A stretch of DNA of 64,000 bases from Treponema sp. Its GTDB lineage: Bacteria > Spirochaetota > Spirochaetia > Treponematales > Breznakiellaceae. Shown here one piece after another: positions 27,691 to 40,162 of this stretch. The notes below the pieces were generated by a model. It made no database searches. It saw nothing but the letters and a program-made list of their open reading frames with translations, and was not told the origin of the DNA. The stretch's first letter is position 1. Each line of letters opens with the position of its first letter. Made by a program: the position numbers and the translations under genes. The DNA lies in contig WRIX01000001.1 of assembly GCA_009782495.1 (NCBI GenBank), positions 4,583 to 68,582 of the forward strand, written 5' to 3'.

Positions 27691-30600
27691 CTATTTATCG
27701 GTAGATTCAGGCAATAACACTAATTCTACCGGCCCTCCTGTAAGTAATTCTGCTGTCAGAATGCTAAGTTCTGCCGCTGTTACCGAGCTGTAAAGACCGG
27801 GTCGTTCTGCCAGATGGGACAAGGGTGTACTGGTAATAACGGTAAAATTCGCCAGATTCCGTGCTACAAATCCGTTGTTTTCCATCCCCCGTTCAAAGCT
27901 CTTAACAAGCGCTTCCCGGGATTTGGCAAGAGTTTCTTCATCTGCCGCTCGTGACAGGAATGCGAGTTGTTCTTTTACCGCTTTCCTGAGTTCTTCCTGC
28001 CGCCCGGGATCGCAGATAAAGTAGATTTCCAGAGACAGCTCCCCGACAGGCGCCGGACTAAAAGATGCTCCGGCATAAATAGAATATACCCCGCCCAATT
28101 TTTCACGTATCTCGTCTGTTAAGACAATGTCCAGATAATCATTCAGTACCAGAACAGCAGCATTATCCGCTTCGGTCCAGGTTTTGGAAACAAAATAGCC
28201 CATGTAAACAATGCATTTTTCTTCCTTTCCTTTATATATGATTTTTTCGGTCATCCCGGGCCGCTGTATATTCGGATTAGTCCAGCTGTTCCATCGCGGC
28301 AGGCCGTTATTCGGAATGGCAGCCAAATACATTTCTGTCAGTTCCTGAAGTTCTTCCCTGTCCCCCAGACTGCCTGCAAGAACAAGTGTAAAATCTGCAG
28401 GATTCAGAGCCAGATTTAAAAAGGCCAGGGCTGCTTTTTCGCTTACAGAATCCAAATCCGCAAGTTCCAGGGGCATAAACAACGGATGATTGGAATACAT
28501 CAGCCGGGACAGTTCTTTAGAGAAGAATATTTCCGGACTGTCTCCTTCCTGGAGCAGTCTGGTTCTGTGATAATCCAGTACCAAAGCCAGTCCGTTTTGA
28601 TCGATACGAGGCTGGGTAAACGAACCGTAAAGCAATTGAAATAAATAAGGAAGATCCTTTAACGAGGATGATCCCCGAAGACCGCGTGTATGTGTACCGG
28701 TCCAGAACGACAGTGAAAGCTGTTTATCGGAAAGGAAGTCCATCAATTCCGGTTTGGAAAGGGCTGCAAGGCCGGAAGCGCTTTGTATTTCAGCGGCTAA
28801 TTTCGCGGAATGAAGCGCCTCTTCCTGCGAAAAGTCAAATCCGTCAAGTATTGCTTCGCCGTCCGGGAGTACGGCGCTTACCGTACCGCCGCGGGCCAGA
28901 GCATAAAAATCCAATTCGTTATTTTTATTGGCGGTAGCAACAAGGATAAGTCGCATTCCGTTGCTTAATTCCCAGACCTCTGCTCCCGATTCATCTTTAC
29001 TAACGCTGATAATTGAACCGGGTACGGCAACTTCGCTTAAAAAACCGGAAACAACAACTCGTTCTTTCGGCGGTGTTATATCAGCATCACGGCTTTCTTT
29101 GACCATGCTGATAATGGCTGCTTCGTTGGGAAGTTTTGCAGCTTCAGTTTCCGGGGCTGTGATAATTGCCAGGAGATCATCTTCTGCATAATACGATCGT
29201 ACTGTCGAGTTAATCATTCCCAGCCTGATGCCCGGAAGGAGCTGTTTTACCGCATAGAGTTCCCATTCCGGGTCCAATGCATACTGTTCACGCAAAAAAT
29301 CGGCAGTCAGTTCATTAAGGTATTGTTCCGATTCCCGTCTGTCTTTTTCGGCGGCTATCCTTTCCATATCGGAAAGAAGCGCTCCTTTGGCCCTTTCCAG
29401 CTCTGAACGGGTAAAGCCGTAACGAAGAAGACGTTCTTTTTCCAAAAGTAACGCTTCCAGTGTTTCGCCGCTGCGCCCTGCTTTCGCATTTGCAGCCATA
29501 ATATAGTACCGGGAACTTTGCCCGTAGCGGCTGTTCCAGGAACCGGCTGCCATATAGGGAGTATCTCCGGCGGAAATATTTTCTTCATAACGGAAATCCA
29601 GCATCATTTCTATCAGGTAATCGATTAAAGATTCGCGGTATGCTTCGAGGGTTGCCGATCTGGCCTGGGGACTGCGTTTGTAGTAGAGGTATACAGTCGA
29701 ATCGGGCAGTTCTTCGTCATCCAGCATCATTTCTATCAGGTAATCGATTAAAGATTCGCGGTATGCTTCGAGGGTTGCCGATCTGGCCTGGGGACTGCGT
29801 TTGTAGTAGAGGTATACAGTCGAATCGGGCAGTTCTTCGTCTGTAACTACGGCAGTAACAATCGCTCCCTTTTCCGGATCGGGCAGTTCAAAGTACGGCC
29901 GGGAAAGGGGAGTCTCCGGAACCGGGGCGCTGAAATGAGCGGCCAATTCCTTTTCCAGAACTTCTCCGTTAAAATCACCCACAAGGATTACAGCCATGTT
30001 ATCCGGTCTGTACCAGTGTTGATAAAAACCAATAAGCCTTTCTGCCGGGGCATCCTGGATTATTTCCGGCAGTCCGATTGGAAGACGGTCTGCAAAGCGG
30101 GAACCGCGGAAGATCAATGGCAGGATTTGCCGCCTTATCCTTTCCCGGGCGCCAAGACGGGTACGGTATTCTTCCATTATAACGGAACGTTCTTTGTCTA
30201 CATCATCGGGATTAAAAGTAACGGCCCAGGTCCAGTCGTCAATAATGGCAAGAGCACGCTCAGGTATGCGTTTTATGCCATTTTCGTCCTGTTCAACAGG
30301 AGTTTCTATGCCGTAAACCGTTTCTTCAAAACCCGTATATGCATTTATCTCCGGGCCAAAACGCATTCCCAGGGAACGGAGGTAATTAATCAGTTCCGCT
30401 CCGGGAAAACGCCGTGTTCCGTTAAAAGCCATGTGTTCAACAAAATGGGCAAGCCCCTGTTCATCGTCATTTTCCAGGATGGAGCCGGCATTAACTGCCA
30501 CGGTAAGGTAAGCCCGGCCTCCCGGAAGTGAGTTTTCCAGTATGTAGTAACGCAATCCATTGTCCAGGGTTCCCGTTCGCAGTGTCGCCCAGGCAGGGAG

Positions 30601-30789
30601 GGAATCCGCAGGAGCGCCAAGGTCTCCGTATAAAGAAGTTACAGGAAGTACAAAGAGAGGTGTATTATCTGCAAAAACACTGCCGATAATAAGGGTAAGA
30701 AAAATGATGAATATAGATAAAATTTTTCTGCTTTTGGCTGATTTTTCCGAAAATCCGGCTGATTTTGATATCCTGTTGAAAATATTCAT
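27691..30789 (-). CDS. M16 (pitrilysin/insulinase) family zinc peptidase, secreted
   Basis: HFVEHMAFNG is the inverted zincin HxxEH motif. 1032 aa with a signal/transmembrane N-terminus. Contains a perfect 41-aa tandem duplication. Confidence 0.88.
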   Translation of the reverse strand: MNIFNRISKSAGFSEKSAKSRKILSIFIIFLTLIIGSVFADNTPLFVLPVTSLYGDLGAPADSLPAWATLRTGTLDNGLRYYILENSLPGGRAYLTVAVNAGSILENDDEQGLAHFVEHMAFNGTRRFPGAELINYLRSLGMRFGPEINAYTGFEETVYGIETPVEQDENGIKRIPERALAIIDDWTWAVTFNPDDVDKERSVIMEEYRTRLGARERIRRQILPLIFRGSRFADRLPIGLPEIIQDAPAERLIGFYQHWYRPDNMAVILVGDFNGEVLEKELAAHFSAPVPETPLSRPYFELPDPEKGAIVTAVVTDEELPDSTVYLYYKRSPQARSATLEAYRESLIDYLIEMMLDDEELPDSTVYLYYKRSPQARSATLEAYRESLIDYLIEMMLDFRYEENISAGDTPYMAAGSWNSRYGQSSRYYIMAANAKAGRSGETLEALLLEKERLLRYGFTRSELERAKGALLSDMERIAAEKDRRESEQYLNELTADFLREQYALDPEWELYAVKQLLPGIRLGMINSTVRSYYAEDDLLAIITAPETEAAKLPNEAAIISMVKESRDADITPPKERVVVSGFLSEVAVPGSIISVSKDESGAEVWELSNGMRLILVATANKNNELDFYALARGGTVSAVLPDGEAILDGFDFSQEEALHSAKLAAEIQSASGLAALSKPELMDFLSDKQLSLSFWTGTHTRGLRGSSSLKDLPYLFQLLYGSFTQPRIDQNGLALVLDYHRTRLLQEGDSPEIFFSKELSRLMYSNHPLFMPLELADLDSVSEKAALAFLNLALNPADFTLVLAGSLGDREELQELTEMYLAAIPNNGLPRWNSWTNPNIQRPGMTEKIIYKGKEEKCIVYMGYFVSKTWTEADNAAVLVLNDYLDIVLTDEIREKLGGVYSIYAGASFSPAPVGELSLEIYFICDPGRQEELRKAVKEQLAFLSRAADEETLAKSREALVKSFERGMENNGFVARNLANFTVITSTPLSHLAERPGLYSSVTAAELSILTAELLTGGPVELVLLPESTDK
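29596..29841. repeat. Perfect 123-bp tandem duplication inside the M16 peptidase gene
   Basis: 29596-29718 is identical to 29719-29841. The protein repeats DEELPDSTVYLYYKRSPQARSATLEAYRESLIDYLIEMMLD twice, in frame. Confidence 0.95.
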
Positions 30790-37412: not shown

Positions 37413-38477
37413 TTACTCCAGGTTCTTAAGAAAACTCTGCAAGAATTCCAGCGGCTTTATTTCCTTGTTTAAAATTTGATACAACCCTGTTGAGATTGGC
37501 ATCTTAAGCTTGAGTTTTTCTGAAAGTATTTTTATGTATTTTGCAGCTGCCGCTCCTTCGGGAAGATAGCCGATTTCTCCGATACGGGAAAGCAAATCAT
37601 CCAGATCCTTAAAAGAGTCCAAAATATTTTTTTCGACAATCTCCCGGCCAAAACGCCGGTTTCTGCCAAAGATCGAACGGCAGGTTACGTCCAAATCTCC
37701 CACTCCGGAAATAGAAGAAAAGGTTTCACTATGAGTGGATCCCATAGCTGTGCCAAGGATCAGTATCTCGTTGAGTCCTGCCGCAAGAAGCAGCGATTCG
37801 GTGTTGTCTCCGAACATTTCTTCTTCATCGTATGATCCTGTTTTTATGGCGTCCATAATTCCAAAGGCAATGGCGATTACATTCTTTGCCGCCGCCGCAA
37901 CCTGAACGCCGCGGACATCAAGCGATGCAAAAACCAAAAGACGGCGGCTTTTTAAAAGGTACCTGAAACGAATGGCATTTTTGGGGTTCTGGCTGGCCGA
38001 GATAAGACCGGTTATTTTACCGCGGGCGACTTCTTCCGCATGGCTGGGACCGGCTATATATACAAGAGACTTCCGGTAAAAACCGGGAAGGTAATCTTCC
38101 AGAGTATCCAAAATCAATGCAGGGCCGCTTGATGTTTCCAGGAAACCTTTAGTGATTACCGCTATAGCAGTATGTCCTTCCCGTATCGAATGTACCGCTA
38201 AAAGCTGTTTTACAGTGTGTAATAAAAAAAGAGACGGCACCGCCAGAATCAGAAATTCTCTGTCTGATACCGTTTCACTCATTCCGGTAAGCGCTTTAAG
38301 GGTTTCCGGTAGTGTAATCCCCGGCAAAAAACGATTATTTGTATGGTGTTTATTTATCTCGTCAGCGGTATCTTTTTCATAACACCAAATGGAAACTTCA
38401 TGGCCTTTTTCGGCAATAGCTTTGGCTACGGCAGTTCCCCATGCCCCCGCACCCAGAACAGCAACAGTGGATCGCAT
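37413..38477 (-). CDS. gpsA: NAD(P)H-dependent glycerol-3-phosphate dehydrogenase
   Basis: VLGAGAWGTAVA Rossmann motif, GPSHAEEVA, AAAKNVIAIA, NRRFG. Confidence 0.92.
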   Translation of the reverse strand: MRSTVAVLGAGAWGTAVAKAIAEKGHEVSIWCYEKDTADEINKHHTNNRFLPGITLPETLKALTGMSETVSDREFLILAVPSLFLLHTVKQLLAVHSIREGHTAIAVITKGFLETSSGPALILDTLEDYLPGFYRKSLVYIAGPSHAEEVARGKITGLISASQNPKNAIRFRYLLKSRRLLVFASLDVRGVQVAAAAKNVIAIAFGIMDAIKTGSYDEEEMFGDNTESLLLAAGLNEILILGTAMGSTHSETFSSISGVGDLDVTCRSIFGRNRRFGREIVEKNILDSFKDLDDLLSRIGEIGYLPEGAAAAKYIKILSEKLKLKMPISTGLYQILNKEIKPLEFLQSFLKNLE

Positions 38478-38515: not shown

Positions 38516-39025
38516 TTAACCGCCAACCAGAAGGCGGCCAATATTGGCAAGTTCCGGCATTTTGACATGAAGGGGCATATGTCCCTTTGCATTGGCTTTA
38601 TCAAGATCGACGAGTTTGACAAATAGTTCGTTTACCAAATCGGCAAAGACCTGCAGGTTTGAGGCAAAATTATTTACTGCCATTTCTCTAAGCACCCTAT
38701 CCGATGAAGAAGGGTCTGATCTGCCCACCCGGCTGCGTATAGATGGCAGTTCCCGCCTTACTACCGATACGAAATGAGCGGCGGCTACGACTTCACGGTA
38801 CAATTCATCCAGGTGAATAGCCTGGGTTGGAGGCTTTTCGGTAAGGTCTTCCATCAGGTCCCAGGATTGATTGTCAAAGGGAAGCTGAAGCAGGGCGGGC
38901 CTGATAAACCGGTTGGAAATATTACTCCTGTAATGTTCACCTATTCGTTCAATAAGTCTGATTATGGAAGCATCCGAAACTTGCATTATATCCATTATAA
39001 ACCAAAATAAGAGTTTTACAAGCAC
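38516..39025 (-). CDS. Hypothetical protein
   Basis: 169-aa ORF with no motif I recognise. An alternative start MDIMQV lies about 33 nt inside. Confidence 0.45.
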   Translation of the reverse strand: MLVKLLFWFIMDIMQVSDASIIRLIERIGEHYRSNISNRFIRPALLQLPFDNQSWDLMEDLTEKPPTQAIHLDELYREVVAAAHFVSVVRRELPSIRSRVGRSDPSSSDRVLREMAVNNFASNLQVFADLVNELFVKLVDLDKANAKGHMPLHVKMPELANIGRLLVGG

Positions 39026-39054
39026 TATTTATGTAAATAAAACTTTAATTTAGC

Positions 39055-39234
39055 GAACTGAACACATCAATCTTTCCATATCGGTGGGGGGAAGAACACC
39101 CATTCAGACCATGGCGGTCGAGGCTGTCGTCGACGCACACTTTGGTGTGGCATCTTCTTCACCTCGCCGAATGGTCTTCATGGCTAACCTTCCCCCCACC
39201 TATGTGGCAACATTATCCCCGATGTGTTCAGTTC
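39055..39234. repeat. Structured element 1: 180-nt near-continuous hairpin with 14-nt terminal inverted repeats
   Basis: GAACTGAACACATC (39055-39068) pairs with GATGTGTTCAGTTC (39221-39234). GGTGGGGGGAAG (39083-39094) pairs with CTTCCCCCCACC (39189-39200). Further pairs are AGACCAT/ATGGTCT, CGAGG/CCTCG and an apical CACAC/GTGTG. No plausible ORF. Confidence 0.8.
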
Positions 39235-39425
39235 AGCAGAGATAAAATTATTGTGCCCCTAACTGCGCTCCCGTGCACTGGCTGTGGGCAGCGCTTTAAT
39301 TACCTATCAAAAAAGTACTGCATCTAAGTGTTTTCAGCCCTTTTCCAGCATTATTTCGGCTCATGGTATGACAGATGCTTAGCAGCAAATTACCGTTTAC
39401 ATCCATCGGAAAAACCTTAACGTAA

Positions 39426-39703
39426 CGAACTGAACATATCGAATTTTATGTTACAACATAGGTAGGTGGTTGCTTATGAAGCATATACGTGAACATGCTT
39501 GCCCCACAGGAGGGGAAGCCTGACCTGACGGGGACTTTCGGCGTGCAACAACAGCAGCCATGCCAAAGCATGCGTAAACGGCAGCCACGACCGGCGTCCC
39601 CGCTCAGGGCAGATTCCCCTTTATGTGGGGTAAAATGGTTCGGAATGTGCTTCATTGATAACCTTTATCTTTACGGTATAGGAAACTTGATGCGTTCAGT
39701 TCG
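39426..39703. repeat. Structured element 2: 278-nt paralog of element 1 with the same termini
   Basis: GAACTGAACATATC (39427-39440) pairs with GATGCGTTCAGTTC (39689-39702). Inner stems are CCCCACA/TGTGGGG, AGGGGAA/TTCCCCT and GGGGAC/GTCCCC. It shares the TTCCCC..TATGTGG segment with element 1. Confidence 0.8.
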
Positions 39704-39736
39704 GTAAATTGTGGTTTTTATTCGCATTGCAAAACC

Positions 39737-39763
39737 TTAACTTGATAAACCGGATGCCGATAA
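39737..39763 (+). promoter_or_regulatory. Sigma-28 (FliA)-type promoter
   Basis: TTAA, 15-nt spacer, GCCGATAA (39756-39763), against the consensus TAAA-N15-GCCGATAA. About 16 nt upstream of the next ORF. Confidence 0.55.
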
Positions 39764-39778
39764 TAAAATGAGGATAAT

Positions 39779-40162
39779 GTGATGAGAATATCGGGTGTTA
39801 CAGCGTTTCCAAACCTTGGTTATGCCTTTTCTAGCTCCAGTTCGGGCAGGATGTCCCTTCCTGTTAATCCGGGCAGCTATATTTACTCACAATTTAAGCA
39901 TGTTGGCGGCGTTCCTGCTCCGGAAGGAACCAATGGAGTAGCTGTTACCAAGCTAAAAATCCTCGATGTACTGATTGAGCAGCTGCACCAGATAAAAAAA
40001 CAGCCCACGCTTAATACAAAAGACCTTTCCAACGAACAAATTGATGCGTTGATCAGCAAATATGAAGGCCAAATCAAGGCTGCCACGGCTGCCAACAACG
40101 TAATGCCCTATACTCCCGCCCCCCAGGTTCCCGCAGGTATGCTTTTCGACATTTCTGCATAA
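39779..40162 (+). CDS. Hypothetical protein (possible sigma-28 regulon member)
   Basis: 127-aa ORF starting at GTG 39779 or ATG 39782, preceded by GAGGA. No recognised domain. Confidence 0.5.
   Translation: MMRISGVTAFPNLGYAFSSSSSGRMSLPVNPGSYIYSQFKHVGGVPAPEGTNGVAVTKLKILDVLIEQLHQIKKQPTLNTKDLSNEQIDALISKYEGQIKAATAANNVMPYTPAPQVPAGMLFDISA

Follow-up and report, generated by a model that had tools for sequence, protein, structure and literature searches.

The window, a stretch of 64,000 nucleotides from Treponema sp. contig WRIX01000001.1 (positions 4,583 to 68,582), includes the divergent genes p159 and p127, which are separated by 783 bp of intergenic DNA. Two long hairpin-forming units, here called E1 and E2, lie in this region. 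An initial annotation, made from the letters of the sequence, had described them as a tandem array of structured paralogs and had offered two readings, tandem small RNA (sRNA) genes or inserted elements. Our analysis indicates that E1 and E2 are very probably a head-to-head pair of miniature inverted-repeat transposable element (MITE) copies, one from each of two subfamilies, that are related to insertion sequences (ISs) of the IS1182 family.

E1 is about 210–220 bp and E2 about 308 bp long, and the open reading frames (ORFs) that overlap them are only short, chance ones. The E1 termini, GAACTGAACACATC and GATGTGTTCAGTTC, form a perfect 14-bp inverted repeat, as the initial annotation had described, and the E2 termini, GAACTGAACATATC and GATGCGTTCAGTTC, form the same repeat with one mismatch (13/14). 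The E2 palindrome reaches further outward, to AAAAACC at the left end and GGTTTTT at the right end, so that positions 39410-39446 pair with 39683-39719 (inverted repeat I5, arms of 37 nt at 76%). E1 has an intact outer (3') terminus at 39039-39068 and a degenerate inner (5') terminus at about 39235-39258. In agreement with the long folds seen earlier, the fold of either unit is one long rod broken by small internal loops. The folding energy of the core is -90.6 kcal/mol (+) and -99.8 kcal/mol (-) for E1, and -128.3 kcal/mol (+) and -107.7 kcal/mol (-) for E2; the z scores of these core folds range from -7 to -11, and none of 200 shuffled sequences folds as well. Full-length E2 folds at -136.9 kcal/mol (z -10.4).

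The identity of 25/30 between 39039-39068 and 39411-39440 was reproduced. The homology of the two units also extends beyond the termini to the arms and the apex, with compensatory changes in the apical stem. The tandem arrangement did not hold up: in an nhmmer comparison the plus strand of E1 matched E2 on the opposite strand (E=8.7e-9), and the same strand gave only E=0.46 and E=2.6. Judged by these alignments, E1 and E2 are inverted paralogs that stand head to head. This orientation agrees with the folding energies, which favour the minus strand in E1 and the plus strand in E2.

The 11-mer AAAACYTTAAY, which had been taken to delimit the units, does have exact copies at 39039, 39411 and 39731, which are 372 and 320 apart, and only one further exact copy was found in the 64 kb (7396, minus strand). 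At 39039 and 39411 it is not a delimiter outside the units; it forms the outer end of the element's terminal inverted repeat, in which AAAACC..AATTTA.CG.ACTGAAC pairs with GTTCAGT.CG.TAAATT..GGTTTT. The AAAACC..AATTTA end is also borne by copies of the family elsewhere. The idea of a repeated 11-mer target thus fails for two of the three copies, since these are element termini. The overlap of the third copy with the sigma-28-like promoter of p127 was correctly recognised. Relatives have TAATC-N14-TACCGAAA at this position, with the same spacing and without the AAAACC part, and the third copy may be a solo-terminus remnant.

Table 1 Features of the p159–p127 intergenic region and the genes on either side of it (window coordinates).
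Feature	Position	Strand	Remarks
E1, probable short-subfamily (S) hairpin MITE copy	39039-39258	- (sense strand)	core rod 39055-39234
E2, probable long-subfamily (Lg) hairpin MITE copy	39411-39718	+ (sense strand)	core rod 39426-39703
Spacer between inner (5') ends of the E1/E2 pair	39259-39381	.	non-coding; no homolog in the short intergenic regions of relatives
5'-adjacent motif, ~30 nt, window version ...GCAGCAAATTACCGTTTACATCCATCGG	39382-39409	+	motif profile E=7e-4; 3 nt before E2
Third 11-mer copy, AAAACCTTAAC	39731-39741 (feature 39731-39764)	+	outside E2; overlaps -35 side of p127 promoter
p159	38516-38995	-	159-aa hypothetical protein (159/156 aa)
Putative p159 promoter, sigma-70-like TTGTAA-16-TATAAT	39021-38994	-	between p159 and the repeats, outside E1
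p127	39779-40162	+	127-aa ORF; homologs in relatives are PF27400 (TP_0700)
Putative p127 promoter, sigma-28-like TTAAC-N14-GCCGATAA	39737-39764	+	between the repeats and p127, outside E2

The window was compared with numbered homologous and metagenome loci (L001, L095 and so on). Five of these (L081, L082, L084, L085 and L088) have a p159 homolog beside a divergent TP_0700 protein of about 105-129 aa, with a gap of only about 100-240 bp, and hairpin units are found in the gap in none of them. Their intergenic sequences keep the sigma-28-like promoter, and the order aminotransferase-Smr-infA on the p127 side is the same as in the window in all but L082. Since the gap is about 783 bp in the window, an insertion of about 650-680 bp has taken place there. 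The site is thus polymorphic, with relatives that have no hairpins, but their p159 is 77-84% identical, too diverged for an empty site to be defined at the level of single bases. The predicted p159 and p127 promoters both lie outside the insertion and look intact, and the pair may well be neutral at this site. Of the two earlier readings, that of cassette-like or site-specific insertions stands, as the units are absent here in relatives and present at more than 50 other sites; that of paralogs of the OmrA/OmrB kind does not, as the units are inverted and dispersed.

In order to identify further copies, one metagenome scan was made with the invariant 3' terminus ATRYGTTCAGTNCGNTAAATT, a pattern derived from E1, E2, the copies in L088 and L089 and a remnant in L001. 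The scan returned 67 metagenome loci, of which about 55 are true copies and about 10 are chance matches. The true copies come mostly from one Nasutitermes gut metagenome; several share a contig, and many lie at contig ends, where repeats that disrupt assembly are expected. Profile searches gave 74 matches, divided between an E1-like subfamily of about 211 nt (S) and an E2-like subfamily of about 310 nt (Lg). The S profile matches E1 at 39040-39248 on the minus strand (189.7 bits) and the Lg profile matches E2 at 39412-39717 on the plus strand (284.1 bits). Sixty-two copies with an intact 3' end and enough flank represent 52 distinct 3'-flank contexts, counts that cover metagenome contigs of related strains, many from one metagenome, and that are not copy numbers per genome. 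All copies of the family are intergenic, and the neighbouring gene on the 3' side runs in the same direction in 31 cases and in the opposite direction in 30, that is, without orientation bias. For instance, an E1-like copy with 91% identity (190/209) precedes an unrelated gene in a different context (L093:453-659), and in L088 and L089 an E2-like copy lies downstream of p159, not upstream. At one end of the elements the family consensus is AAACC.CAATTTA.CG.ACTGAACACATC; the other end is its reverse complement. The scan pattern was taken from the 3' terminus, and an apparent excess of copies truncated on the 5' side was therefore set aside as an artefact of ascertainment. Viral contigs scanned with the apex and terminus patterns gave 0 matches, a BLAST search against phages and plasmids found no match, and a literature search found no description of this MITE family.

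Some copies show further arrangements. Arrays longer than pairs occur, as in L152:148-1076, where three copies stand in a row, S(-), Lg(+) and S(+). In L147:3422-4587 a p159 homolog has copies on both sides, Lg(-) and S(+) upstream and S(-) right after the stop codon; the 3' termini of both S copies face the p159 homolog, and the layout resembles a composite transposon. The Lg copies of L088 (3221-3330) and L089 are near-identical except for a 103-nt indel in one arm, which is bounded by the direct repeat GCCCCGC and is consistent with a microhomology-mediated deletion or insertion.

The ends of the hairpins are also the ends of transposase-bearing ISs. The 1.9-kb IS at L095:665-2583 encodes a 502-aa DDE transposase that matches Pfam DDE_Tnp_1_6, DDE_Tnp_1 and DUF772, all above cut-off. 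Its ends, TAAACCCTAATTTACCGCACTG... and ...CAGTGCGGTAAATTA (also given as TAAACCCTAATTTACCGCACTGTTTGCCGT and ACGGCAAGCAGTGCGGTAAATTA), are 100% and 96% complementary to the hairpin termini, and their first 22 nt are the exact terminus of an adjoining hairpin. At both ends the inverted repeat runs into IS-specific sequence, and these are therefore the IS's own ends. This IS also has imperfect subterminal inverted repeats of about 133 bp. A second IS, at L165:166-2081, encodes a transposase 67% identical to that of L095; at its ends, AAACAATAATTTGCCGTGATGAACGCAGCA and TGCTGCGTTCATCCCGGTAACTTAGTGTTT, 23/32 and 20/32 positions agree with the hairpin terminal consensus, including the TGAAC.CA part, which the L095 IS is without. 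In both ISs a subterminal stretch of about 105 nt gives a weak alignment with the S profile (E ~2e-4). Hairpins and ISs have one more property in common: in 13-17 hairpin copies the last letters coincide exactly with the stop codon of a convergent ORF, the terminal TTA being the reverse complement of TAA, and the L095 and L165 ISs likewise supply the stop codon of a neighbouring ORF. These abutting stop codons are the only hint of a TA or TAA target. To one IS1182-family homolog, P0182, NCBI gives the name 'IS1182 family transposase ISMac2'.

A third hairpin subfamily of about 207 bp, with the same termini and an unrelated interior, is represented beside the L095 IS (L095:2618-2824) and by a second copy at the start of that contig (L095:1-79). 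In L160:260-810 an IS1182-family IS is apparently inserted in the remnant of another, seemingly IS3-like transposase gene that ends in ...YNRIRMHSTLDYLAPNGF, an example of nested ISs.

Copies of the family also coincide with rearrangements. Close relatives have different genes beyond the pair: p127 in the window, a 240-aa ORF in L001 and L105, and a 288-aa ORF in L147, L086 and L143. In L001 (960-1065), which belongs to the metagenome-assembled genome (MAG) Nt197P3bin20 and has about 90% nucleotide identity, the p159-side arm of E1 is joined to the last ~25 nt of an Lg copy. The same fusion is present in L124 and L138, and the 240-aa ORF and a tRNA then follow instead of p127. The change in L001 is a deletion and rearrangement whose breakpoint lies within the hairpins. 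L086 keeps only a terminus of about 20 nt. Three pairs of contigs (L123/L151, L104/L155 and L107/L140) have orthologous 3' flanks, where one contig of each pair has an S copy and the other an Lg copy; this points to recombination between dispersed copies or to repeated use of one site. The 5' flanks of L123/L151 and of L104/L155 are unrelated. The same 3' flank with either an S or an Lg copy, together with unrelated 5' flanks, marks the copies as recombination breakpoints.

Taken as MITEs, the units would have arisen as follows. Their terminal inverted repeats of about 25-30 bp and, more weakly, their arms of about 100 nt would derive from the ends of an IS1182-family IS. Deletion of the IS interior would have brought the left and right ends back to back and left a palindrome of 210-270 bp; such an origin would explain why the whole unit is one long imperfect palindrome. 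An IS1182-family DDE transposase would act in trans, binding the termini (AAACC.CAATTTA.CG.ACTGAAC...) and moving the unit. The head-to-head pair would have landed between the divergent promoters of p159 and p127, and the dispersed copies also act as breakpoints of rearrangement.

Several observations weigh against this explanation. The L095 and L165 transposases match the NCBIfam IS1182 model (NF033551) at E=8e-71 (239 bits) and E=3e-79 (267 bits), both just below its cut-off of 270 bits. Neither the 64-kb window nor the other loci that were fetched contain a transposase of this kind, and the remaining IS1182-family copies (L158-L164) have ends that are cut off by the contig or different. No consistent direct repeat that could be a target-site duplication was found at the ends of the hairpins, the pairs or the two ISs. 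The copy counts, as said, do not refer to single genomes. Moreover, the hairpins have features that a plain MITE does not call for. The consensus rod of 23 S copies comprises 54 pairs; 95% of its cells are paired, and compensatory changes are seen at 29 of these pairs. When the pairing partner in the S alignment was slid by 1-3 columns only 3-8 compensated pairs remained, and none of 500 shuffles reached the observed values. In eight Lg copies 35 of 87 rod pairs are compensated. The apical stem varies (CCATAT/ATATG, CCACAC/GTGTG, CCACGT/ACGTG and CCATGC/GCATG) around a constant CAAA loop. The sense strand, minus in E1 and plus in E2, gives the better fold in 30 of 33 full copies, with a mean advantage of 11-13 kcal/mol and two to three times as many G-U pairs as the other strand. 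A 5' motif (TGCGGCAGATGG..GTTAACATCCATCGTG) precedes the 5' end by 2-19 nt in 15 of the 33 copies with an intact 5' terminus; it is one-sided, in sense orientation, and never occurs at 3' ends. Finally, the layout of the window pair, head to head and with the 3' ends pointing away from each other, is that of all ten adjacent pairs. Because many S copies are near-identical, the strand bias and the covariation are in part inherited, and an IS with two co-evolving ends would also mimic compensation.

Strand-biased G-U pairing, compensation along the whole rod, conserved apical and internal-loop motifs and a motif at the 5' end only are the basis for reading the family as more than inert MITE debris, with the sense-strand hairpin used either as a rod-shaped RNA transcribed from the 5' motif or as a single-stranded DNA hairpin that serves as transposition intermediate or recognition form. 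We consider such a single-strand function distinctly unlikely; if it were true, the strict head-to-head pairing would reflect function or targeting and not chance. Under one rival explanation the units would be genes for dispersed, long, rod-shaped non-coding RNAs, possibly a domesticated MITE, transcribed in the sense direction from the 5' motif and acting as regulators like double-stranded RNA or as protein sponges, so that the likeness to transposons would be historical. The same strand bias, strong covariation in both subfamilies, compensated apical stem and sense-oriented motif speak for it, as does the conservation of UUCGGCG and AGCC.CGACCG along with the CAAA loop. We nonetheless think it quite improbable. 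The ends and arms of the units are those of transposase-bearing ISs, many copies are truncated or at contig ends, and most S copies are so alike that their strand bias is in part the legacy of a few master copies. By inspection, neither the 5' motif nor the termini read convincingly as a sigma-70, sigma-28 or sigma-54 promoter, since spacing and -10/-12 elements do not fit; all promoters called in a scan lie outside the elements, the rod has no terminator after it, and no promoter/terminator pair flanks either unit. These last points, together with IS-type termini, inverted rather than direct units in the nhmmer comparison, at least 52 contexts and absence from this site in relatives, leave hardly any credibility to tandem sRNA paralogs that arose by local duplication in the manner of OmrA/OmrB, which two structured paralogous units side by side in one intergenic region had brought to mind. 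The family also shows no orientation bias relative to neighbouring genes, and Rfam gave no match to the units: at gathering score across the window it matched only a tRNA, and at E<=10 on the span 38900-39900 only two chance fragments of long non-coding RNAs. Retrons, integron attC sites, 6S RNA, Y RNA and terminators were rejected as well, there being no reverse transcriptase or integrase nearby, no central bubble and no Rfam match, and the units being far longer than attC sites or terminators.

Two other explanations keep the units mobile. The whole of 39039-39718 (E1, spacer and E2) could be one composite element of about 680 bp that moves as a unit, a variant of the MITE explanation in which solitary hairpins are half-elements left by deletion. 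The uniform head-to-head pairs with outward 3' termini fit this proposal, and so do the outer flanks of the window pair, which are inverted repeats (AATAAAAC... and ...GTTTTTATT), and several solitary copies in which an orphan motif or a stub of the partner's terminus faces away (L142, L136 and L104). We regard it as possible, though on the whole doubtful: each hairpin bears both termini and could move alone, the partner subfamilies and the spacer length (about 30 to 150 nt) vary, L152 has three units in a row of which the last two share an orientation, and the E1-like L093 copy is without a recognisable partner hairpin. Movement of single-stranded hairpins by a Y1 (HUH) transposase or a RAYT, as in palindromic elements of the REP/BIME or IS200/IS605 type, would account for a strand-specific hairpin with no target duplication seen, for the asymmetric ends with a sharp 3' boundary and a 5' motif in some copies only, and for clusters of copies in alternating orientation, which resemble BIMEs. 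It is nevertheless highly improbable here, as the rods of 180-310 nt are 5-10 times longer than REPs (20-40 nt), the Pfam-checked neighbours (a helix-turn-helix protein, a RelE/antitoxin pair, a hemerythrin and a DDE transposase) include no RAYT or TnpA(Y1), and the termini match DDE elements of the IS1182 family with classical terminal inverted repeats.

A pair of MITE copies with IS1182-family ends thus remains the preferred explanation, and it places E1 and E2 in an ordinary class of elements and not in a new RNA system. Correia elements of Neisseria and RUP of Streptococcus pneumoniae are short non-autonomous MITEs with terminal inverted repeats that are dispersed, often near gene ends; RUP has its termini in common with IS630-Spn1, and in both only the ends of about 26 bp are inverted repeats and TA duplications are made. 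The family described here is likewise short, non-autonomous and dispersed, with terminal inverted repeats that it has in common with a transposase-bearing IS, but the whole unit pairs, and head-to-head pairs and a one-sided motif are typical. ERIC/YPAL sequences are non-coding, intergenic, multi-copy imperfect palindromes of enterobacteria, about 127-168 bp long, that would form a hairpin when transcribed and lie in either orientation beside genes. Our family resembles them in being non-coding, intergenic and multi-copy, in being an imperfect palindrome throughout and in lying in either orientation, but it has no sequence similarity to them, its units are about 211 and 310 nt long, and it is found in spirochetes, with IS1182-family termini and with no TA duplication seen. 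With the IS1182-family ISs themselves it has in common the terminal ~25-30 bp, a weakly similar subterminal region of about 100 bp and the use of the terminus as the stop of a flanking ORF; E1 and E2 differ from them in having no transposase gene and in a size of 0.2-0.3 kb against 1.9 kb. The likeness to OmrA/OmrB ends with the presence of two related structured units in one intergenic region, as the units here are inverted and dispersed, have IS-type termini and show no evident promoter or terminator.

The flanking genes are themselves poorly characterized. The gene p159 is arranged like an operon with gpsA (37413-38477) and has 872 homologs, essentially all from termite-gut spirochetes and none with a Pfam domain; its downstream neighbours are very variable in relatives. 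A Pfam and NCBIfam search of p159 and p127 from the window found no domain in the local libraries, no database record was found for the exact p127 sequence, and the TP_0700 label of p127 was taken from precomputed Pfam matches on the homologs of relatives. The window comes from a termite-gut Treponema, and its gpsA shares 94% identity with the gene of MAG Nt197P3bin20 and 63-82% with the genes of dozens of termite MAGs. Among 80 gpsA-anchored loci in genome contigs the region is common only to L001; synteny with gpsA is a poor anchor because p159 adjoins gpsA only in the window and L001. The divergent pair of p159 and a TP_0700-family gene is conserved in termite-gut Treponema (the window, L081, L082, L084, L085 and L088). 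The sigma-28-like sequence before the TP_0700 gene suggests a pair that belongs to a flagellar or motility regulon. Elsewhere in the window, a 1032-aa M16-like peptidase ORF (27691-30789, minus strand) includes a perfect 123-bp tandem duplication at 29596-29841 (2.0 copies, 100%), so that the same 41 aa are encoded twice without a shift of frame (DEELPDSTVYLYYKRSPQARSATLEAYRESLIDYLIEMMLD); it is either of very recent origin or an artefact of the assembly.

The structure that the initial annotation had found the least explainable in the window is thus best seen as a transposon-derived repeat and not as a new riboregulator, which removes a false lead. What emerges is a MITE family of termite-gut Treponema that comprises two main subfamilies and a third one in L095, together with its likely IS1182-family partners. 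The repeats break metagenome assemblies, mark breakpoints of synteny and often sit exactly on stop codons. Should their strand-specific structure turn out to have a function, the family would offer a useful example of how a MITE is domesticated.

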